DNA of 64,000 nucleotides, from the NCBI GenBank assembly GCA_964443975.1, contig CAYUFS010000031.1, positions 549-64,548 of the forward strand. The letters are read 5' to 3'. A model generated the notes under the pieces. That model was not told where the DNA came from and did no database searches. It saw nothing but the letters and a program-made list of their open reading frames with translations. This DNA is from an uncultured Myxococcales bacterium (GTDB lineage: Bacteria; Myxococcota_A; Polyangia; Fen-1088). Of this stretch, positions 1,256 to 52,051 are shown piece by piece; position 1 is the stretch's first letter, and every line of letters begins with the position of its first letter. The position numbers were made by a program, and so were the translations under genes.

Positions 1256-1298
1256 ATGGCCGTCAGCACGCTCATGACGCCCCGCCCAAGGAACCCCC

Positions 1299-3677
1299 AT
1301 GACCTCGATTGACGAGACGGACGAGATCGTCAAGGAGTTCCTCGTCGAGAGCTACGAGAACCTCGATCGATTGGACCGCGATCTCGTGGCGCTGGAGCAG
1401 AACCCGAGCTCGGCGGAGTCCGTGGCCAGCATCTTTCGCACCATCCACACGATCAAGGGGACGTGCGGCTTCCTGGGCTACGCCCGCCTCGAGGCGGTCG
1501 CCCACGCCGGTGAGAACCTGCTCAGCCGCCTGCGCGATCGCGAGATCGTCCTCAGCGCGGAGATCACCACCGCCCTCCTCAGCACCGTCGACGTCATCCG
1601 CGAGATGCTGGCGGCCATAGAGAAGAGCGGACAGGACGGGGACCGCGACTACCCCGAGCTGGTGGCGCGGCTTCACGAGTTGCAAAGCGGGGCCGTGGCG
1701 CCGGCGCCGGCGCCCGTGGCCGCTCCTCCCCCGAAGGCCGTCCCGCAGCCGCTCCCCGTCGCCACCACGGCGGCACCGGCGACCATGCCGTCCTCGGCCC
1801 CGGCCGCGGCCGCGCCGATCGTGCTCCCGGCACCGACATCCGCCTCGCCTGCCAAGGCCGCCCTCGCTCCCGGCAAACCAGCGCCAGCCGCCACGCCGCC
1901 CCTCGCGGCGACGGCGCCGGAGCGCGCCCCCTCGAACGAGCCGGCGGACACCCGCGCGGCCTCCGCCGTGACCGATACGTACGTCCGCGTCGACGTTGGC
2001 GTGCTGGACAAGCTGATGAACCTCGTGGGCGAGCTCGTGCTCGCGCGCAACCAGATCCTGCAATTCGTGGCCAGCGCCGACGACCCCAGCTTCACCGCCA
2101 CCTCCCAGCGCCTCAACCTGATCACCACCGAGCTGCAGTCGGGGGTGATGAAGACCCGCATGCAGCCCATCGGCAACATCTGGGAGAAGCTGCCCCGCGT
2201 GGTCCGCGATCTGTCGCTGGCCCTCGGCAAGCGGATCCACATCGAGATGGAGGGACGCGAGACCGAGCTCGACAAGACCATCATCGAGGCGATCAAGGAT
2301 CCGCTGACTCACCTGGTGCGAAACTGCGTCGACCACGGCCTCGAGACCGAGGCCGAGCGGGTGGCGGCGGGCAAGGACCCGGAGGGGCGGCTGTCGCTGC
2401 GCGCCTTTCACGAGGGCGGGCAGGTGAACATCGAGATCTCCGACGACGGCGCCGGCCTGAACCTGGACCGCATCCGCGCCAAGGCCGTCGAGCGTGGGCT
2501 GCTGTCGGCGGACCAGGCAGCGCGCCTCGCGGATCGCCAGGTCTGCGACCTCATCTTTCTTCCGGGGTTCTCCACGGCCGAGAAGGTCAGCAACGTCTCC
2601 GGGCGGGGCGTGGGCATGGACGTCGTCAAGACGAACGTCGAGCGCATCGGCGGCATCGTCGACCTCGTGAGCCGGCCCGGCCTCGGGACCACCTTCCGCA
2701 TCAAGATTCCGCTGACCCTCGCCATCATTCCGGCGCTCATCGTCACGAGCGGGGGCGATCGCTACGCCATCCCCCAGATCAGTCTCCTCGAGCTCGTGCG
2801 CCTCACGGGAGCCCAGGTGAAGGACTCCATCGATTCGATTCACGGGACGCCGGTGTGCCGGCTGCGCGGCAGCCTGCTGCCGCTCGTCGATCTGGGACGC
2901 GAGCTCGGCTTCGGCGACCCCCGCGAGCCCCTGAAGCTGGCCGAGGCCGAGACGGTGAGCATCGTGGTCCTGCAAGCGGACAATCACCGCTTCGGCCTCA
3001 TCGTCGACCGCATCACCGACAGCGAGGAGATCGTCGTCAAGCCGCTCGGCAAGCACCTGAAGGGCATCCCGGCCTTCGCGGGCGCGACGATCATGGGCGA
3101 TGGGCGGGTCGCGCTGATTCTGGACGTCCTCGGGCTCGCCCAGGTGGCGAGGGTGGTCGGCCAGGGCCAGGACCGCACGAAGTCGAAGCGAACGCAGACC
3201 GTCGAAGCCTCGGAGCGCCGCAAGCAGAGCCTGTTGCTGTTCAGCCTGTCCGATGGCCGGCCCGTCGCCGTGCCGCTGTCGATGGTCGCTCGGCTGGAGA
3301 TCTTCGACGCGCGCACGGTCGAGGCGCTGCAGGACTACCGGGTCGTCCAGTATCGCGGCGAGGTGCTCCCGCTGCTGGACGTCGACACCCTGATGGGCAC
3401 CGGCGCCGCGAACTGGGACGCCGAGGGTCCCCTGCACGTGGTGGTGCACGGGGTCGGCGACCGCCACATCGGCCTCGTGGTGCGGCGGATCATCGACGTC
3501 GTCGAGGAGCACGTCGACGTCAAGCGCCCGACCTCGGGCCGGAGCGCGAGCGGCGTGCTCGGGTGCGCCGTCATCCAGAAGCGCGTGACGGAGATGCTGG
3601 ACCTGGACGCCATGTTGCGGCTGGAGGCGGGGCGCTTCTTGGCCGGCGACGAGACCACGACAGGGGCGGAGGGCTGA
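1299..3677 (+). CDS. cheA: Chemotaxis histidine kinase CheA (Hpt, Pro/Ala linker, dimerisation, HATPase, two CheW-like domains)
   Basis: FRTIHTIKG Hpt motif; HLVRNCVDHG; VSGRGVGMDVV; two C-terminal CheW-like domains (RYAIPQISLLE.., PVAVPLSMVARLE..). Confidence 0.97.
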   Translation: MTSIDETDEIVKEFLVESYENLDRLDRDLVALEQNPSSAESVASIFRTIHTIKGTCGFLGYARLEAVAHAGENLLSRLRDREIVLSAEITTALLSTVDVIREMLAAIEKSGQDGDRDYPELVARLHELQSGAVAPAPAPVAAPPPKAVPQPLPVATTAAPATMPSSAPAAAAPIVLPAPTSASPAKAALAPGKPAPAATPPLAATAPERAPSNEPADTRAASAVTDTYVRVDVGVLDKLMNLVGELVLARNQILQFVASADDPSFTATSQRLNLITTELQSGVMKTRMQPIGNIWEKLPRVVRDLSLALGKRIHIEMEGRETELDKTIIEAIKDPLTHLVRNCVDHGLETEAERVAAGKDPEGRLSLRAFHEGGQVNIEISDDGAGLNLDRIRAKAVERGLLSADQAARLADRQVCDLIFLPGFSTAEKVSNVSGRGVGMDVVKTNVERIGGIVDLVSRPGLGTTFRIKIPLTLAIIPALIVTSGGDRYAIPQISLLELVRLTGAQVKDSIDSIHGTPVCRLRGSLLPLVDLGRELGFGDPREPLKLAEAETVSIVVLQADNHRFGLIVDRITDSEEIVVKPLGKHLKGIPAFAGATIMGDGRVALILDVLGLAQVARVVGQGQDRTKSKRTQTVEASERRKQSLLLFSLSDGRPVAVPLSMVARLEIFDARTVEALQDYRVVQYRGEVLPLLDVDTLMGTGAANWDAEGPLHVVVHGVGDRHIGLVVRRIIDVVEEHVDVKRPTSGRSASGVLGCAVIQKRVTEMLDLDAMLRLEAGRFLAGDETTTGAEG

Positions 3678-3678
3678 G

Positions 3679-4170
3679 ATGGAGAGCATTCAATTCACCA
3701 CCTTCTCGGTGGACGGCGTCTACTTCGGCGTCGACGTGAACGGGGTCCAGGAGGTCCTGCGCTATCAGACGATGACGCATGTGCCGCTGGCGCCGTCAGT
3801 CGTGAAGGGCCTCATCAACCTGCGCGGCCAGATCGTGACCGCCATCGACCTGCGACAGCGGCTGGGCATGCCCCCCCGCCCCCCGGGCACGTTGCCCATG
3901 AACGTCGTCCTGCGCCTGGACGACGGACCGGTCAGCCTGCTGGTCGACGACATCGGCGACGTCCTGACGGTGTCGCCGCATCTCGCCGAGCCGCTCCCCG
4001 AGACGATGCAGCACCTTGGCCGCGAGCTGATCACCGGCGTCTACAAGCTGAGCGGCCGGCTGTTGCTGATCCTCGACGCGGAGCGCGCCGTGACGTTCCA
4101 CAACGGGCGGCTCCGCGGCAGCGACGACAACCATCACGCGGCCGCCGCCACCCCTTCCAATCCGCAATGA
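3679..4170 (+). CDS. cheW: Chemotaxis coupling protein CheW
   Basis: [39 protein letters not shown]. Confidence 0.96.
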
Positions 4171-4192
4171 CCCCTCCGAGGAGAACCATTCC

Positions 4193-6070
4193 ATGAAGAA
4201 CCTGAGACTGAACCAGAAACTGATCGCCGGCTTCGGCCTGATCCTGGGCATCTTCGCCTCGGTCGGGGTCGTCGTGAGCCACAGCTTGCAAGGCGTGAGG
4301 GCCGGCGGCGAGATCATGCGCACGCACTCGATCCCGGGAATGTTCCAGCTGGCGTCAATCCGGAAGCTCTCGAACGCCAACTTCCTCCTCGCTCAGTCCG
4401 TGGCCCTCACCGAGGATCCGGCGGCCCGGGACCGCCTGGAGGTCGAGATGACCGAGAACACGCGGCAGCGCCTCGAGCTGTTCCCGAAGTACGAGGCGCT
4501 GATCGACACGCCCGAGTTGCGCGGCCACTTCGACGAGCTCAAGCGCGCGACCGACAGCTGGAGCGCGCTCAAGCCCAGGATCTTCGCCGCCGCGAACGCC
4601 AACGACCAGAAAGAGGCGAGGCGAATCTTGAACGTGGAAGGCGCGCCCATTCGCGCCGCGTTCGACGCGGCGATGAAGGCCCTGTTCGCGTCCTCGGAGA
4701 GCGGGACGCGCGAGACCGCCGACGCCATCGTCGCCTCCGCGACCGCCATGGCGACCATCCTGTGGGGGGGGATCGCGCTGACGCTCGCATTCGGAATCAT
4801 CGTCGCCCTGGTCATCGCCCGCAGCATCACGCGGCCGGTGGCCTCGCTGGTCGAGCACGTCACCCGTGTCGGCCAGGGTGACCTCGCGTCTCGCTGCGAC
4901 TACAGCTCGCGCGACGAGATCGGCCAGCTCAGCGATTCGTTGAATCGCATGACGGGCGACCTGAAGATGGCGCAGGGCCAGGAGGCCGTGCGCACCGAGC
5001 AGGACCGCGAGACGCAGCGCGAGCTGCAGATGAAGGTCGACAGCTTGCTCAGCGACGTGCGGCGGATCGGCGACGGCGACCTGACGCAGCAGATCTCGGT
5101 CAAGGGCGCCGACGCCATCGGGCAGCTCGGCGAGGGCATCGAACACCTGTCCTCCGAGCTGAACCGAAACATGTCCGCCATCGCGCACAACGCCCAGACC
5201 CTCGCCGCCTCGGCCGAGGAGCTGAGCGCCACCTCGCAGCAGATGGCCTCCAACTCCGAGGAGACCTCCAACCAGGCGGGCTCGGTGTCCTCCGCGGCCG
5301 AGCAGGTCAGCAAGAACGTGCAGACCGTGGCCACGGCCGGCGACGAGATGACGGCCTCCATCAAGGAGATCGCGAAGAACGCGCACGAGGCCACCAAGGT
5401 GACGATGACGGCCGTCGAGGTGGTGCGCTCCGCGAACGCCACCATCAGCAAGCTGGGTGACAGCTCGATGGAGATCGGCAAGGTCATCAAGGTCATCACC
5501 TCCATCGCGGAGCAGACCAACCTGCTCGCGCTGAACGCCACCATCGAGGCGGCGCGCGCCGGCGAGGCCGGCAAGGGCTTCGCGGTCGTCGCCAACGAGG
5601 TGAAGGAGCTGGCCAAGGAGACCGCGAAGGCGACCGAGGACATCAGCCTTAAGGTCGATGCCATCCAGGGAGACACCGCCGCCGCCGTGAAGGCCGTCGA
5701 GGAGATCCGCGGCATCATCAACCAGGTCAACGACATCGCCACCACCATCGCCGGCGCGGTCGAGGAGCAGACGGCCACCACCAACGAGATCGGCCGCAGC
5801 GTGTCCGAGGCCTCCCGCGGCGCCACCGAGATCGCCCGCAACATCAGCGGCGTGGCGCAGGCCGCCCAGAACACCGCCGCCGGCGCCGGCGCGACCCTGA
5901 CCGCAGCGTCCTCGCTGGCCCAGCTCGCCTCCGAGCTCCAGGCGGTGGTCGGCCGCTTCAAGCTGGACGGCCGGCCTCGCGCCACCGCTCAGTCGGTCGC
6001 GCTCCGCTCGGTCAACGGTGCCGGTCGCGGCAACGGAACCTCTCATCGCAGCAACGGCTCGGCGGCTTGA
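4193..6070 (+). CDS. Methyl-accepting chemotaxis protein (TM, four-helix-bundle-like sensor, TM, HAMP domains, signalling domain)
   Basis: Two hydrophobic TM segments; canonical tip [31 protein letters not shown]. Confidence 0.97.
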
Positions 6071-46978: not shown

Positions 46979-48151
46979 GTGGACCAGGCAGACAGTCAGG
47001 AATCGAAGGGTTTCGAGGGTAGAAACGGTGTCTGCCGGGGGCGAGGGCAACCCCGCGGATGGTGGCCTCCGCGCCGCTCCCCTCGCCTCGCGGCGCGACC
47101 GGTCGTCGCCGTCGCCGCGGCCACGCTCGGCCTCGTGCTGCTCGCCGCGCCCGCGCGCGCCCAGGTGGCGCTGAACCTGTACGGCAACGCCGACTATCAC
47201 GCGATGAAGGACAGCGGGCAGACCACCAACGCCTTCGGAACGGCGCTGGCGGACGTGTTCCTGTCGGGGACCAAGGAGAAGCTCTCCTACCTGGCGGAGT
47301 TCGTGTTCGAGGTCGGCGACAACAACGAGTTCGCCGTCGACGTCGAGCGGCTTCAGCTCGGATACCAGGTGACTGAATGGTTCCGGGTCGCGGCCGGGCG
47401 CTTTCACACGGCCTTCGGCTACATCAACGACAGCTACCACCACGGCGCCTACTACCTGCTTTCGACGGGTCGTCCGACCTTCGTGAACTTCGAGGACGGC
47501 GGTGGCCTGATCCCGGCCCACAGCGTGGGCTTGCACATCGACGGCCGGTTTCACCTGGGCTCGTCGCGGTTGCGCTACGACGCCGAGCTCGCAAACGGAC
47601 GCGCTGCCACATCCGATCAGGTGACGAACCGGATCGATCCGAACAATGGCAAGGCGGTCAACCTCCGCCTTCGCCTCGAACCGGGCGGCGTGCTCGACGG
47701 CCTCGTCTTCGGCGGCAACGTCTACCTCGACACGATCGACACGACGGACGCCCTGATGGTCCCCGTTCGGATGAGCGAGCAGGCCTACGGGGCACACCTC
47801 GCCTATATGGAGCACAACGTTCACCTGATCTCGGAGACGGCCTTGTTCCGCCACGTCGAGAGCAACGGCGGGCCCACGCACCAGACCGTGGCCACGTTCG
47901 TGGAGCTCGGATACAGCTTCGCCGAGCTCACGCCTTATGCTCGCTACGAGCGCACCTCGTTCGGGAGCGGGCCCGTCGATCCCTACTGGGCGGCGGGAGC
48001 GGCGGCGCGGGGCAGCTTTCACGTCGTGACCGGCGGCCTCAACTACCTCGCCTCCGACAGCGTGGCCCTCAAGCTCGAGGGCAAGTACCAGCACTTCGAC
48101 TCGAACCAGACCTCGAAGGGTCTCTCCGCGCAGGTGGCCTATGCGTTCTAA
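46979..48151 (+). CDS. Outer-membrane porin-like beta-barrel
   Basis: GAGGAGG RBS before GTG; signal peptide ending ARA-Q; VERLQLGY, AGRFHTAFG, alternating strands, C-terminal QVAYAF. Confidence 0.82.
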   Translation: MDQADSQESKGFEGRNGVCRGRGQPRGWWPPRRSPRLAARPVVAVAAATLGLVLLAAPARAQVALNLYGNADYHAMKDSGQTTNAFGTALADVFLSGTKEKLSYLAEFVFEVGDNNEFAVDVERLQLGYQVTEWFRVAAGRFHTAFGYINDSYHHGAYYLLSTGRPTFVNFEDGGGLIPAHSVGLHIDGRFHLGSSRLRYDAELANGRAATSDQVTNRIDPNNGKAVNLRLRLEPGGVLDGLVFGGNVYLDTIDTTDALMVPVRMSEQAYGAHLAYMEHNVHLISETALFRHVESNGGPTHQTVATFVELGYSFAELTPYARYERTSFGSGPVDPYWAAGAAARGSFHVVTGGLNYLASDSVALKLEGKYQHFDSNQTSKGLSAQVAYAF

Positions 48152-48617
48152 GTCGCGACGAGATGGGCGCTGGCTGTGGCGGCTCGCGGGCTTCCTGGGA
48201 GTGCTGACGATGTTCCTGGCCGCGGTGGCGGCGGCGGCCGGGCCGAGCCCGTACGTGTTGATCAAGAACGCGCGGAACAAGTCCATCGCCACCATCAGCA
48301 AGGCCGACGCCCGCGATATCTTCACCGGGAAACGGAAGCTCTGGTCGACGGGCGAGGTCGTCCAGATCGTGCTCCGCCCCGGCGAGGGCGACGGCATCGA
48401 GTGGCTGGCCCAGGACGTCTTCGGCGTGTCCCCTCGAAACCTGCTCACCAAGATCCGGCAGGAGGTGTTCAAGGGCGAGATGGCCAAGCCCATCGTCGCA
48501 GCCTCCGACGAGGAGACGATCAAACAGGTGGTGAGCGTGGGCGGGGCCATCGGCATCATCCCGGCCCCTCTGGCGGCGAAGCTGCCCGCTGAAGCGGTCG
48601 TATTGCCCATCAACTGA
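48141..48617 (+). CDS. Small exported protein resembling one lobe of a phosphate-binding (PBP2) protein
   Basis: Signal peptide; ISKADARDIFTGKRKLW, SDEETIKQV..GAIGII; overlaps the porin stop. Confidence 0.72.
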   Translation: MRSKSRRDGRWLWRLAGFLGVLTMFLAAVAAAAGPSPYVLIKNARNKSIATISKADARDIFTGKRKLWSTGEVVQIVLRPGEGDGIEWLAQDVFGVSPRNLLTKIRQEVFKGEMAKPIVAASDEETIKQVVSVGGAIGIIPAPLAAKLPAEAVVLPIN

Positions 48618-48629
48618 GGAACAACAGCG

Positions 48630-50693
48630 ATGAACTCAACAGCGCCCGGGCCTTCGAAGGAGGGGCGGACCCTCAAGCTGAAACTACTGCTTGGGTGTCT
48701 GACTCCGCTCCTGGTGGCGGTGATCTGCCAGGGCCTCTACACGGTGACTGCGCAACGCAAGGCGCTGATCGGTGGCCTCGAGGAGAAGGGTCGCTCGCTG
48801 GGCGCGCTGATGGTGAACGTGGTCGGCCCCAGCCTGGCCCTCGACGATCTGCCCGGCGCCACGGAGGGCCTCGGCTTCATCGCCAAGGACGCCGACTTCG
48901 CGTTCTCGGCGGCGCTCGCGCCCGATGGCAGGGTGCTGAGCTTCGTCGGTCCCGAGGCCGCGCGGCCCCTGCTCGCCGCCTCGGCCTCCGCTGTGAAGGC
49001 TCCCAGTCTGGTCGTCGGACGGGAGGTCCTGGTGGCCCTCTATCCGCTCAAGCCAGGGACCACCGACCTCGGCACGGTCGCGGTGGGCCTCAAGACCAGC
49101 AACGTGCGCGCCGCCGCGAACCGAATGGTGGCGCGCGTCGTCCTGATCGCGGCGGTCGGGATCATGATCGCCGTCCTGGTCGTCCTGTTGCTGGCGGCCG
49201 CGATCGTCCGCAGAAACCGCGATCTCAAGCTGATCATGGACAACGTGGGCCAGGGCTTCATGAGCGTGAAGCGCGGCGGCGAGGTCCTGCCCGAGCACTC
49301 CGCCATCCTCGAGAGCTGGTTCGGCGCCTGGCAGTCGGGCGCGCCCTTCTGGGGCTACATCGGCGGCGCCTCGAAGAAGCTGGAAAGCTGGTTCGAGCTG
49401 ATGTGGGACAACGTTCGTTCCGACGTGCTGCCGGTGGAGATCGCTCTCGAGCAACTGCCGGTGCGGGCCGAGGTCGGAGGCAAGACCTTCGAGTTTCAGT
49501 ACAAGCCCATCTTCAAGGGCGCCCACCTCCTCCACATCATGTTCGTGATCTCGGACATCACCGCGCTCGTGGAACAGGAGCACGCGAGCTCGGAGCAGCG
49601 TGAGCTGATGAGCTTGTTTCAGTGGCTGCTGAAGGATCGGACCGGCCTCCTCGAGTTCTTTCACGACGCCAACGGCCTGGTGCAGCAGTCGGCCACCTGG
49701 GGCGACGACGATCTCGGCGCCCTCAAGCGCAACATTCACACGCTGAAGGGCAACGCCTCGGTGTTCCGGCTCGAGAGCGTCACCCGGGTCTGCGAGGCCA
49801 TCGAGAACCGCTGGGCCGATGGGGCAGACGGGCGTCTGTCGGACGATGAGATCGCGGTCCTGCTCGCCACGTGGAAGGGCGTTCAGGACCGGATGTTGCG
49901 ACTGCTCGACGGCGACGACGCCCGCCGCTTGGAGATCGAGCTGCACGAGCACGACGAGCTCATCGCCGCGATCGAGCGGCAAGAGCCGCACGCGGCGCTG
50001 TTCGAGATCGCCCGCGCATGGACCTTCGAGCCGATGAAGCAACGCCTGGGGCGCTACGGCAAGCAGGCGGGCGAGCTGGCCCGCCGCCTGAACAAGGGTG
50101 AGCTCACCGTCCGCGTGGAAGCGGACGGCGTTCGGTTGCCGCAGGGGATGCTGGCGCCCTTCTGGTCATCCGCCGCCCACCTGATCCGAAACGCGGTGGA
50201 CCACGGCATCGAAACCCCCGACGAGCGGCGTGACGCCGGCAAGGATGGCCCCGCCGTCCTGGTGTTGCACGCCTCCCGACAGGATGAAGGTCTGGTCGTC
50301 GCCATCGAGGACAATGGGCGCGGCATCTCGTGGGACAAGCTCGCGGAGAAGGCGCGCGCCGCTGGGCTGCCGTCGTCTTCGCGGGAGGATCTGGTCGCTG
50401 CCTTGTTCGCGGACGGCATCACCACCCGCGAGGGAGCGACGGAGGTGTCGGGGCGTGGGGTGGGGATGAGCGCGGTCCGTGAGGCCTGCGAGGCCACTGG
50501 CGGCCGGCTCTCGGTCTGGAGCGAGCCGGGCAAGGGCACGCGCTTCGAGTTCGCCTGGCCACGCACGCTGCTGGAGCCCGCTCGCGACCATGAGGTGACG
50601 AAAGCAGCCGCCTCGGCCACGGGAGCACCAAGGAGTGGTTCGGAGGCGAGACCTGGCACAGGCAAGGTGGCTCCGAAGAAGGTGGCTGCCTGA
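48630..50693 (+). CDS. Membrane-anchored CheA-like histidine kinase (TM-periplasmic domain-TM, PAS-like, Hpt, CheA-type HATPase, no CheW domain)
   Basis: Two TM helices; IMDNVGQGF...SDIT (PAS-like); NIHTLKGNAS (Hpt); HLIRNAVDHGIE, IEDNGRGI, EVSGRGVGM; ends shortly after the ATPase domain. Confidence 0.88.
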   Translation: MNSTAPGPSKEGRTLKLKLLLGCLTPLLVAVICQGLYTVTAQRKALIGGLEEKGRSLGALMVNVVGPSLALDDLPGATEGLGFIAKDADFAFSAALAPDGRVLSFVGPEAARPLLAASASAVKAPSLVVGREVLVALYPLKPGTTDLGTVAVGLKTSNVRAAANRMVARVVLIAAVGIMIAVLVVLLLAAAIVRRNRDLKLIMDNVGQGFMSVKRGGEVLPEHSAILESWFGAWQSGAPFWGYIGGASKKLESWFELMWDNVRSDVLPVEIALEQLPVRAEVGGKTFEFQYKPIFKGAHLLHIMFVISDITALVEQEHASSEQRELMSLFQWLLKDRTGLLEFFHDANGLVQQSATWGDDDLGALKRNIHTLKGNASVFRLESVTRVCEAIENRWADGADGRLSDDEIAVLLATWKGVQDRMLRLLDGDDARRLEIELHEHDELIAAIERQEPHAALFEIARAWTFEPMKQRLGRYGKQAGELARRLNKGELTVRVEADGVRLPQGMLAPFWSSAAHLIRNAVDHGIETPDERRDAGKDGPAVLVLHASRQDEGLVVAIEDNGRGISWDKLAEKARAAGLPSSSREDLVAALFADGITTREGATEVSGRGVGMSAVREACEATGGRLSVWSEPGKGTRFEFAWPRTLLEPARDHEVTKAAASATGAPRSGSEARPGTGKVAPKKVAA

Positions 50694-51658
50694 TGACCGG
50701 CCAGAGCCTGTCCCTCTCCACGGTCATCCAGGCGGTCGCCGACGCCGTGCGCAAGCAGCACGCCGAGCTGCGCGACGAGATCGCGATGGTTCAGAGCGTG
50801 AGCGAACGCGAGGTGCTCGCCGCGGGGGGGGCCATCGCAAAGATCTTCGAGGAGATGACCGAGCACACGGCGCGCCTGTCCGCGCTCAAGGCGCACGAAT
50901 CGAGCGACAGCGCCAAGGGCTCGTTCGCGGCCGTGCTCACCCGCTTCGCGGGCGAGATGCCGGCGCTGCTTGGCGTGCTCGTGAGCGAGACCACGTCCCA
51001 ATCGCGCCTCGCCAGCGGCGCCGCCGCCCAGATTCGCGAGGTGACGAACCTGGCCGAGGACATGTCCCGGATCGCCCAGTGGTGCCGGGTGGTGGCAAGC
51101 AACGCGCGCGTCGAGGCCGCCCACGCAGGCGAGCTGGGTGCCGGGTTCGCCGTCCTCGCGGACTCGCTGGCGGCCATGTCGAACGACATCGCGCGGGCCA
51201 CGAAGTCCATCCAGGACCGAGCGACGGCGGTGAGGGGCATCGTGTCGGAGATGGCCGATGGGGCCGCCAAGGTCGCGGCGGAGGGGCGCGCCCGCACGGC
51301 GACCATGAAGGCCTCGGTGGGCGAGTGCCAGAAGGCGTACCAGGACGGCGTCGTGGGATCGATCCATGGGTTCGAACAGAACGCAGCCTCCATTCGCGAT
51401 CGCTCGAACGCGGCGCTCAGCCACCTGCAGTTCCAGGACCGCCTTCAGCAATCCCTGGATCACGTGCTCGAGGGGAACGCGCGCATCGTCGCCGGGCTGG
51501 AATCCCTGGCGGCCGACCTGGCCGGGGCCGACGCGCCCGCGTCGATCGAGGGGCTCGAGGAGGTCCTGCACCAGCTCTTCACGAACGCCTCCGCGCTGGC
51601 GGTCGTGCGGGATCTCGCCGGAAGCGAGCGCTCGGACGGCGAGATCCAATTTCTCTGA
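50693..51658 (+). CDS. Soluble MCP-signalling-domain-like coiled-coil protein with C-terminal QFQD motif
   Basis: No TM segment; degenerate tip VVASNARVEAAHAGELGAGFAVLA; LSHLQFQDRLQQ; ATG overlaps the upstream stop. Confidence 0.78.
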   Translation: MTGQSLSLSTVIQAVADAVRKQHAELRDEIAMVQSVSEREVLAAGGAIAKIFEEMTEHTARLSALKAHESSDSAKGSFAAVLTRFAGEMPALLGVLVSETTSQSRLASGAAAQIREVTNLAEDMSRIAQWCRVVASNARVEAAHAGELGAGFAVLADSLAAMSNDIARATKSIQDRATAVRGIVSEMADGAAKVAAEGRARTATMKASVGECQKAYQDGVVGSIHGFEQNAASIRDRSNAALSHLQFQDRLQQSLDHVLEGNARIVAGLESLAADLAGADAPASIEGLEEVLHQLFTNASALAVVRDLAGSERSDGEIQFL

Positions 51659-51682
51659 TCTGACTCACGAAGGGAACCTCAC

Positions 51683-52051
51683 ATGGCGAACCAGAAGACC
51701 ATCCTCATTGTCGATGACTCCGCGACCGTCCGGCAAATGCTCACGTTGACCTTGACCGGTGGTGGCTTCAACGTCGTCGCCGCGGAGAACGGGGCCGAGG
51801 GGCTCGCGGCGGCAAAGAAGCAGAAGGCGGACCTCGTGATCTCGGACGTCAACATGCCGGTCATGACCGGCCTGCAGATGATCGCGGAGATCCGCAAGCT
51901 GCCGAGCTACGCGAAGACACCGATCTTCGTCCTGACGACCGAGTCGGGAGCGCGGGTCGCCGAAGGCAAGGCCGTGGGCGCCTCGGCCTGGATCGTGAAG
52001 CCTTTCAAGCCGGAGAGCCTGCTCGCCGGCGTGAAGCGCGCGACGGGCTAA
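51683..52051 (+). CDS. cheY: CheY-like single-domain response regulator
   Basis: IVDDS, ISDVNMP, LTTES, WIVKPF. Confidence 0.92.
   Translation: MANQKTILIVDDSATVRQMLTLTLTGGGFNVVAAENGAEGLAAAKKQKADLVISDVNMPVMTGLQMIAEIRKLPSYAKTPIFVLTTESGARVAEGKAVGASAWIVKPFKPESLLAGVKRATG

Follow-up and report, generated by a model that had tools for sequence, protein, structure and literature searches.

A soluble McpA-like protein encoded between a CheA-type kinase and CheY in a Polyangia bacterium carries an invariant FQDxxxQ motif and is a candidate CheY phosphatase

A chemoreceptor-like gene between a kinase gene and cheY

We analysed a 64,000-nucleotide (nt) stretch of DNA from an uncultured Myxococcales bacterium (Polyangia, Fen-1088; GenBank assembly GCA_964443975.1, contig CAYUFS010000031.1, positions 549 to 64,548 of the forward strand), which is called the window below. 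Relatives of its aconitase likewise assign the DNA to an uncultured Polyangia/Myxococcales bacterium. An open reading frame (ORF) at 50693-51658 of the window encodes a protein that resembles the signalling domain of methyl-accepting chemotaxis proteins (MCPs). An earlier note, made from the DNA letters, had described the product as a soluble MCP-like protein with a degenerate tip and a CheZ-like DxxxQ motif, and had suggested that it may act as the phosphatase of phosphorylated CheY (CheY~P). The gene, the features within it and its two immediate neighbours are as follows (lengths in amino acids, aa).

50693..51658, + strand: soluble McpA-like (MCPsignal-like) protein, 321 aa (open ORF and translation)
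51089..51169, + strand: variant hairpin tip, aa 133-159, VVASNARVEAAHAGELGAGFAVLADSL (translation; alignment with orthologs)
51425..51451, + strand: LQFQDRLQQ motif, aa 245-253, with D249 at nt 51437-51439, Q253 at nt 51449-51451 and H257 at +8
51641..51655, + strand: pentapeptide EIQFL-COOH after a disordered linker, a candidate CheY tether (family tail conservation)
48630..50693, + strand: membrane sensor kinase, 687 aa, with a CheA-type core of Hpt/P1 and HATPase_c/P4 and no CheW/P5 (Pfam, NCBIfam)
51683..52051, + strand: CheY-type single-domain response regulator, 122 aa, with D55, T85 and K106 (Pfam Response_reg, 89.7 bits)

When the ORF was translated, the tip and LQFQDRLQQ were found exactly where the earlier note had placed them. 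The stop codon of the kinase gene overlaps the start ATG of the McpA-like gene (ATGA), and cheY starts 24 nt 3' of the latter. In the kinase, Pfam detected Hpt at residues 343-409 and HATPase_c at residues 516-645, the NCBIfam CheA model matched aa 435-647, and the alignment with a Pseudomonas CheA scored 97.6 bits (phmmer). The N-terminal part of the kinase (48630-49200) weakly matched NF053592, "sensor histidine kinase, YfiR-like protein-associated" (25.7 bits; cut-off 194).

The only Pfam family detected in the 321-aa protein was MCPsignal (33.6 bits, aa 98-218; gathering threshold 34.6), and neither a sensing domain nor a HAMP domain was found by Pfam. A profile of the protein and its relatives matched solved chemoreceptors with E = 1e-33. 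The AlphaFold2 (AF2) model, with a predicted local distance difference test score (pLDDT) of 80, is a long helical hairpin; its helices span residues 8-70, 78-277 and 285-300 and are followed by a disordered tail. The best Foldseek matches of this model in the PDB are the chemoreceptor cytoplasmic domains 2ch7, 3zx6 and 1qu7. No hydrophobic N-terminal segment was found in the 321 residues, the helices of the model beginning at residue 8, and the protein, as judged from its sequence, is soluble and has no transmembrane segment. A recognisable methylation consensus was also not found in the protein; the LQFQD motif was considered as a methylation or deamidation site and rejected, as it does not fit [ASTG]2-x2-[EQ]2-x2-[ASTG]2.

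The MCPsignal score just below the gathering threshold and the non-canonical tip are what a decaying, functionless MCP paralog might show. However, the ORF is intact and coupled to its neighbours, and tip variant, motif and tail are all preserved in orthologs with 97%, 68% and 62% identity, two of which also have the order of kinase, McpA-like gene and cheY. A functionless paralog is thus extremely improbable, and we rejected the pseudogene reading as effectively refuted by the conservation among orthologs.

The LQFQDxxxQ motif is invariant at low overall identity

A word-indexed search, which was seeded by shared 5-mers and is possibly biased thereby, returned the three close orthologs and 75 distant MCPsignal proteins of 300-440 aa. 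LQFQDxxxQ was present in all of them. In an alignment of 72 relatives, whose overall identity is only about 20%, L245, Q246, F247, Q248, D249 and Q253 are invariant. The other invariant columns across the 72 sequences are N137, E141 and A142 in the tip, and, column by column, the motif is more conserved across the family than the tip is.

An index-free HMMER search was made with a profile of the C-terminal module against 1.84 billion representatives. The module was found in 5,064 clusters (50% identity) at E <= 1e-3 and in 1,827 clusters at E <= 1e-10, and LQFQD...Q is present in 144 of the 148 best representatives. Typical members are about 400 aa long and have an N-terminal hydrophobic segment, which was seen in 94 of 112 full-length ones. 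A hidden Markov model (HMM) built from the C-terminal modules of typical members gave an end-to-end match to the window protein (31.9 bits, E = 3e-9); the other ORFs of the window, ordinary MCPs and CheZ were not matched by it. FQD...Q was found in none of the 73 ordinary MCPs that are encoded in the same gene clusters as McpA-like genes. Because the motif is invariant at such low identity, widespread, and absent from ordinary MCPs, we consider it to be more than a chance resemblance.

The earlier note had stated that QFQD tails occur on some MCP-like proteins of other che clusters, and had held that its idea would fall if D and Q were not conserved in orthologs. The statement was correct, since the motif invariably marks a family that comprises at least 5,000 clusters, and D and Q are kept in the orthologs and far beyond them; the McpA-like family itself had not been recognised in the note.

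In the heptad register that follows the motif, D, Q (+4) and H (+8) occupy the outward b, f and c positions, and a break of the register falls inside the motif. The distance from the tip to the Asp of the motif is 102 residues in the window protein and 105 in 62 of 69 relatives. Both values lie off the canonical heptad-class series of 83/90/97/104, and a heptad class is not assignable.

The family matches the published McpA-like receptors

The McpA-like receptors, among them PA0180/CttP of P. aeruginosa, VCA1088 of V. cholerae and SO_2117 of S. oneidensis, were defined from ancestral (stage 1-2) F7 clusters by Ortega et al. (2020, PMC7184735). Their heptad class could not be assigned and a transmembrane region is predicted (PMC7184735). 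They are dispensable for the F7 array and associate with F6 arrays (PMC7184735), and within F6 arrays McpAso (SO_2117) was shown to cluster with CheA3 (Fortier et al. 2022, PMC9855816). CttP has been linked to trichloroethylene taxis, and a review on V. cholerae found no experimental reports on VCA1088 (Mlp44). The function of these proteins and their strikingly conserved C-terminus have been called unexplained (PMC7184735, PMC7534058), and our literature search found neither a QFQD motif nor a phosphatase idea for the McpA-like family.

The family described above matches these receptors in tail motif, in cluster position and in the literature description, and it is on these three that the identification is based; the published criterion for the orthologous group is clustering with PA0180 at E = 1e-30. 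Like the published proteins, the window protein has an MCP signalling hairpin with an unassignable heptad class, and its gene is linked to a che cluster and its CheY. It also shares with them a conserved C-terminal pentapeptide that is not of the CheR type, and some of the aligned relatives end in EVELF or DVELF as published. It differs from them in having no transmembrane segment, in its remodelled tip, and in a tail that ends in Leu. Its gene lies outside an F7 cluster and is accompanied by no Aer2, CheW, CheR, CheD, CheB or STAS. The protein is instead partnered by a membrane kinase of the CheA type that lacks P5, and its host belongs to the Myxococcota and not to the gamma- or beta-proteobacteria. 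We class the protein as a soluble variant of the McpA-like family with a remodelled tip, moved into a CheW-free, P5-free kinase/CheY module.

The hairpin tip is remodelled

The canonical tip used for comparison belongs to the MCP ORF at 4094-6067 of the window, and 15 of 27 positions are identical between the two tips (manual count). N137, E141, A142, G146 and F152 are retained in the variant tip. In a manual alignment with Tsr and Tap, about half of 38 tip positions are unlike, and the changed ones include the equivalents of F373, I377, L380, R388, E402 and R404; several of the changed positions are trimer or CheA/CheW contacts in Tsr. The N, E, A, G and F396-equivalent positions are kept. 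The consensus kinase/CheW-docking tip of canonical MCPs is therefore not what the window protein carries. Most typical members among the best 148 matches of the C-terminal module have a fully canonical tip.

The variant is kept in the orthologs P0002 and P0003, which are 62-68% identical to the window protein. Because of this conservation the tip is remodelled rather than decaying, and the "decay" supposed in the earlier note was not borne out. The same note had connected the altered tip with a partner kinase that has lost P5, and here the coincidence holds: the kinase has Hpt and HATPase_c but no CheW/P5 domain, and relatives with a canonical tip sit beside a P5-containing CheA and CheW. The comparison supports a correlation between the change of the tip and the loss of P5, yet the correlation comes from essentially one lineage. 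In a second group, consisting of P0004, P0007 and P0018, the tip is even more altered, and the contig concerned (L011) does not reach far enough to show a kinase.

The tip bears on the reading that the protein is a non-catalytic, receptor-like regulator or scaffold, namely a rewired soluble chemoreceptor whose hairpin modulates the P5-less kinase or whose tail recruits CheY to the kinase. Such a role agrees with the fold and the best structural matches, both of which are those of chemoreceptors, with the five tip-core residues retained and conserved in orthologs, with the translational coupling to the kinase gene by the ATGA overlap, and with the published McpA-like proteins, which join CheA/CheW arrays. 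However, a sensing domain, a HAMP domain and a recognisable methylation consensus are all lacking, and receptor tips bind P5 or CheW, whereas this kinase has no P5 and the operon no CheW. The reading also leaves unaccounted for why LQFQDxxxQ is conserved above the tip and why the gene tracks CheY rather than CheA. We regard a purely regulatory or scaffolding role as a real but rather doubtful alternative.

CheY accompanies the McpA-like genes

The module of kinase, McpA-like protein and CheY is kept in the window and in two ortholog contexts, with a porin-like barrel and a small exported protein encoded nearby in either orientation. In the McpA-like operon of the window, CheW, CheR, CheB, CheD and STAS were not found, and no STAS, CheZ or CheX homolog was found within the 64-kb window. 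STAS, PP2C and CheD were likewise not found in the module of the window or of its two ortholog contexts.

A CheY of about 122 aa lies directly beside the McpA-like gene in 10 of 10 metagenome contexts, usually 4-64 nt downstream and in two cases immediately upstream. The CheY of the window has 84% identity to the ortholog in L001, 45-49% to the CheYs encoded next to McpA-like genes in beta/gamma-proteobacteria and 33% to that of E. coli. By these values it is a member of the CheY lineage found with McpA-like genes. Among 80 named Burkholderiales genomes, 67 have a detected CheY of this lineage just 3' of the McpA-like gene; the 80 loci were found with eight typical members and are biased to Burkholderiales, with Polyangia relatives missed. 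Most of the other 13 loci have a CheY-sized gap before the next che gene, which suggests that the missing CheYs are genes overlooked by ORF calling.

The proteobacterial loci typically continue with STAS, a CheA with P5, an ordinary MCP, CheW, CheR, CheD and CheB. P0028 and P0044 are encoded in clusters of the stage-2 type, which contain STAS, the McpA-like gene, CheY, CheA, MCP, CheW, CheR, CheD and CheB. The relative P0007, whose tail is EIQFL and whose tip is strongly altered, is encoded in L011 (587-2896) ahead of cheY and a gene for a 309-aa CheX-domain protein, in that order.

These gene neighbourhoods raise another possibility, that the motif and the tail are lineage marks that serve a different partner, such as a receiver-PP2C/STAS partner-switching pair, CheD or an intramolecular latch, and that the likeness to CheZ is coincidental or only ancestral. 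In stage-1/2 F7 clusters, genes for an anti-sigma antagonist and a serine phosphatase accompany mcpA (PMC7184735); in Shewanella their products are CrsA and CrsR (PMC9855816). STAS lies 3' of CheY in nearly all Burkholderiales loci, and the motif itself may derive from the MDxVTQQNA segment of canonical MCPs. On the other hand, motif and tail are intact in the window and in the two ortholog contexts, where the module holds no STAS, PP2C or CheD, and CheY and a CheA-type kinase are the only partners common to all contexts examined. We therefore judge it unlikely that motif and tail are lineage marks with another partner.

A conserved C-terminal tail distinct from the CheR-type pentapeptide

The tail of the family is conserved as [DE][IV]x[FL][FL]-COOH, and the window protein ends in EIQFL. 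Relatives end in EITFF, EVTFF, EVELF or DVELF, the last two being the endings of P0028 and P0044, and most typical members among the best C-terminal module matches end in [DE][IV]TFF. Supplementary Table 12 of PMC7184735 lists the tails EVELF, DIELF, TVELF and EIELF. EIQFL fits the McpA-like tail type [DET][IV]x[LF][FY], with the terminal Leu as a variant, and it fails the CheR pentapeptide pattern x[HFYW]xx[HFYW].

The ordinary MCPs of McpA-containing clusters end in CheR-type pentapeptides of the form xFxxF. In the Burkholderiales che clusters L012-L091, for example, MCP tails are QFSPF, QFTRF, DFVRF and similar, as against EITFF on the McpA-like proteins. Two different C-terminal tethers therefore coexist in one cluster. 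In the window, the tail is retained though the operon has no CheR, CheB, CheD or STAS, and therefore its partner should be CheY or the kinase. A second conserved element, Y-[AT]-[MT]-x-[ED]-[EQ]-R-x-x-H, lies 25-35 residues before the C-terminus in typical members and is degenerate in the window protein (LFTNASALAVV).

The McpA-like ORF and cheY lie in one reading frame (51656-51685), with TGA and eight sense codons (SDSRREPH) between them. Among the related loci checked, 27 are likewise in frame across a single stop, and the arrangement probably reflects tight operon packing. As a computational device, with no read-through claimed, we modelled the fusion McpA-like-W-SDSRREPH-CheY given by reading through the TGA, using 26 naturally in-frame paired rows, and judged the model through pLDDT and DSSP only. 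The tail had a pLDDT below 50 when the McpA-like protein was modelled alone. In the fusion, a beta-bridge was formed at Q319-F320 and residues 318-322 were at pLDDT >= 50. This gain in the modelled tail is a weak hint of CheY docking.

Comparison of the motif with CheZ and other phosphatases

The translation of E. coli CheZ from NC_000913 contains AQDFQDLTGQ, in which D143 and Q147 lie, and F-Q-D-x3-Q is common to the window protein (FQDRLQQ) and CheZ (FQDLTGQ). The Pfam CheZ model (PF04344) weakly matched 7 of 24 family members (best E = 4.1e-4, HMM positions 45-158). In five of five inspected alignments of relatives, the Asp of the family was placed on HMM position 129, which corresponds to E. 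coli D143. The CheZ side of the comparison was represented by the Pfam model; a search with E. coli CheZ gave at least 120 matches, of which the 120 listed are all at least 71% identical and mostly enterobacterial. Of the CheZ-like motif proposed in the earlier note, the spacing and the flanks, FQDxxxQ, stood up, but the similarity to CheZ is local and remains below thresholds in hhalign and Pfam.

In CheZ (PF04344; E. coli, PDB 1KMI) as in the window protein, F-Q-D-x3-Q lies on a long helix of an antiparallel hairpin able to form a four-helix bundle, a flexible linker leads to a conserved extreme C-terminal peptide, and the gene adjoins cheY; the register of the weak Pfam alignments agrees with D143. 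The two differ in that there is no significant global sequence or fold match, the hairpin and tip of the window protein being homologous to those of MCPs. Its tail is also unrelated in sequence to the ...DDLLDSLGF helix of CheZ, and no helix is predicted for it.

Both CheZ and HisKA_3 kinases use DxxxQ as their catalytic motif (e.g. PMC3510030). In the HisKA_3 DxxxQ and HisKA E/DxxT/N motifs (PMC3510030), as here, an acidic residue and an amide or hydroxyl residue are spaced by one turn of the helix, on the face that a four-helix bundle leaves exposed, and these kinase motifs act on the phospho-Asp of a receiver. They differ in that they adjoin the phospho-accepting His of the DHp domain, whereas no His precedes the motif of the window protein. 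A functional precedent outside CheZ is S. meliloti CheT, a DXXXQ protein encoded with CheS (STAS) in an F7-type che operon and described in a review as a CheZ-like phosphatase of CheY1~P (PMC12654446). CheT resembles the window protein as a non-CheZ DXXXQ protein in a che operon, one that holds STAS, acting on one specific CheY. It differs in its description, the review presenting it as a protein with no significant homology to known chemotaxis proteins and not as an MCP-like hairpin (PMC12654446).

The protein as a candidate CheY phosphatase

The interpretation of these observations that we favour is that the McpA-like protein acts as a CheZ-like phosphatase, to which CheY is tethered by EIQFL and which dephosphorylates it in the CheZ manner by D249 and Q253. 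The protein would dimerise into a receptor-like four-helix bundle, and the EIQFL peptide on its flexible linker would tether the neighbouring CheY, in parallel with the CheY-binding peptide of CheZ in logic and not in sequence. The exposed D249 and Q253 on the C-terminal arm could then enter the active site of CheY~P and speed its hydrolysis, as do F141-Q142-D143...Q147 in CheZ. The kinase would thus write the signal and the McpA-like protein erase it. We further propose that the canonical CheA/CheW-docking tip was remodelled because the module has neither CheW nor P5.

Our comparisons show the family membership (by sequence), the invariance of the motif, the conservation of the tail, the synteny with CheY and the local alignment of the motif to the CheZ active site; CheY binding, catalysis and dimerisation are inferred. 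We count in favour of a phosphatase the motif invariance, the FQDxxxQ identity to CheZ, the exposed heptad positions, the CheY adjacency and the conserved tail, and further the absence of CheZ, CheX and STAS from the window, the DxxxQ precedents and the change of the tail in the AF2 fusion.

Several observations weigh against it. The Pfam CheZ model did not match the window protein even at E up to 10, its scores for relatives (12.6-20.7 bits) lie under the gathering threshold of 30.7, and coiled-coil sequences inflate weak scores. When the family was compared with the single E. coli CheZ by hhalign, the register was right, with E = 0.084 and a probability below 1%. CheZ is absent from the 50 best Foldseek matches in the PDB, all of which are chemoreceptors. 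Canonical MCPs carry a DxxxQ on the same arm (MDQVTQQNA), and the tip-to-Asp distance of 105 in the family is about one residue off the value of 104 that a 40H receptor should have. In addition, the Pfam alignment of P0044 suggests that the motif may be derived from the canonical MDxVTQQNA segment, and the family motif could be such a derived segment and hence a lineage mark rather than an active site.

Genomic and functional data weigh in the same direction. In stage-1 F7 clusters and in Shewanella, mcpA lies beside STAS and receiver-phosphatase genes and not directly beside cheY (PMC7184735, PMC9855816). In published work, McpA-like proteins act as receptors: McpAso is found in F6 arrays, and CttP is linked to taxis. 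The CheX-domain gene right after the cheY of P0007 would provide a second candidate phosphatase in that relative. Finally, the AF2 fusion gave no confident docking (predicted template modelling score 0.48, tail pLDDT ~45-55). Taking both sides together, we put forward the CheZ-like phosphatase tentatively, as a reading with somewhat less than even chances.

A broader proposal is that the whole McpA-like family (at least 5,000 clusters, with PA0180, VCA1088 and SO_2117) consists of CheY~P phosphatases built on the chemoreceptor hairpin, each with an FQDxxxQ site and a tether peptide. Most of them would be docked in arrays by a canonical tip, and the window protein would have been freed from the array. 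We consider this extension to the whole family rather unlikely. If true, it would account for the conservation of the "puzzling" C-terminus and for what McpA does in ancestral F7 systems, and would suggest that catalysis of the CheZ type had its origin in the MCP helix segment MDxVTQQ or converged on it. A phosphatase of this kind would be a fourth structural class of CheY phosphatase and would link the evolution of receptors with that of phosphatases. McpA-like receptors are conserved in the ancestral F7 systems of Vibrio, Pseudomonas and Shewanella and in hundreds of Burkholderiales genomes. The Polyangia module, with a kinase, an McpA-like protein and CheY but no CheW, CheR, CheB or STAS, is a natural minimal system, and the invariant FQDxxxQ offers a concrete hypothesis that can be tested by mutation, namely that the protein terminates the signal on its partner CheY.

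Neighbouring genes and the second che cluster of the window

Two further genes upstream of the kinase gene are conserved operon partners of the module.

46979..48151, + strand: porin-like outer-membrane beta-barrel, 390 aa (Pfam Porin_4, 24.3 bits)
48141..48617, + strand: exported 158-aa protein (no Pfam or NCBIfam match)

Homologs of the 158-aa protein adjoin the orthologous modules in L001 and L094, and homologs of the porin-like protein were found in the same two (310 bits in L001 and 323 bits in L094). The orthologous operon of L001 has an extra 202-aa gene (5203-5811), which lies between the genes for the small exported protein and the kinase and has no homolog in the window.

The other che cluster of the window contains a canonical CheA at 1278-3674; genes for CheW, an MCP, several receiver proteins, CheB and CheR come after it and extend to about 11 kb. 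This CheA matches the P5/CheW region of the Pseudomonas CheA twice, at aa 205-622 and at aa 662-780, suggesting that it carries an extra C-terminal CheW-like domain.

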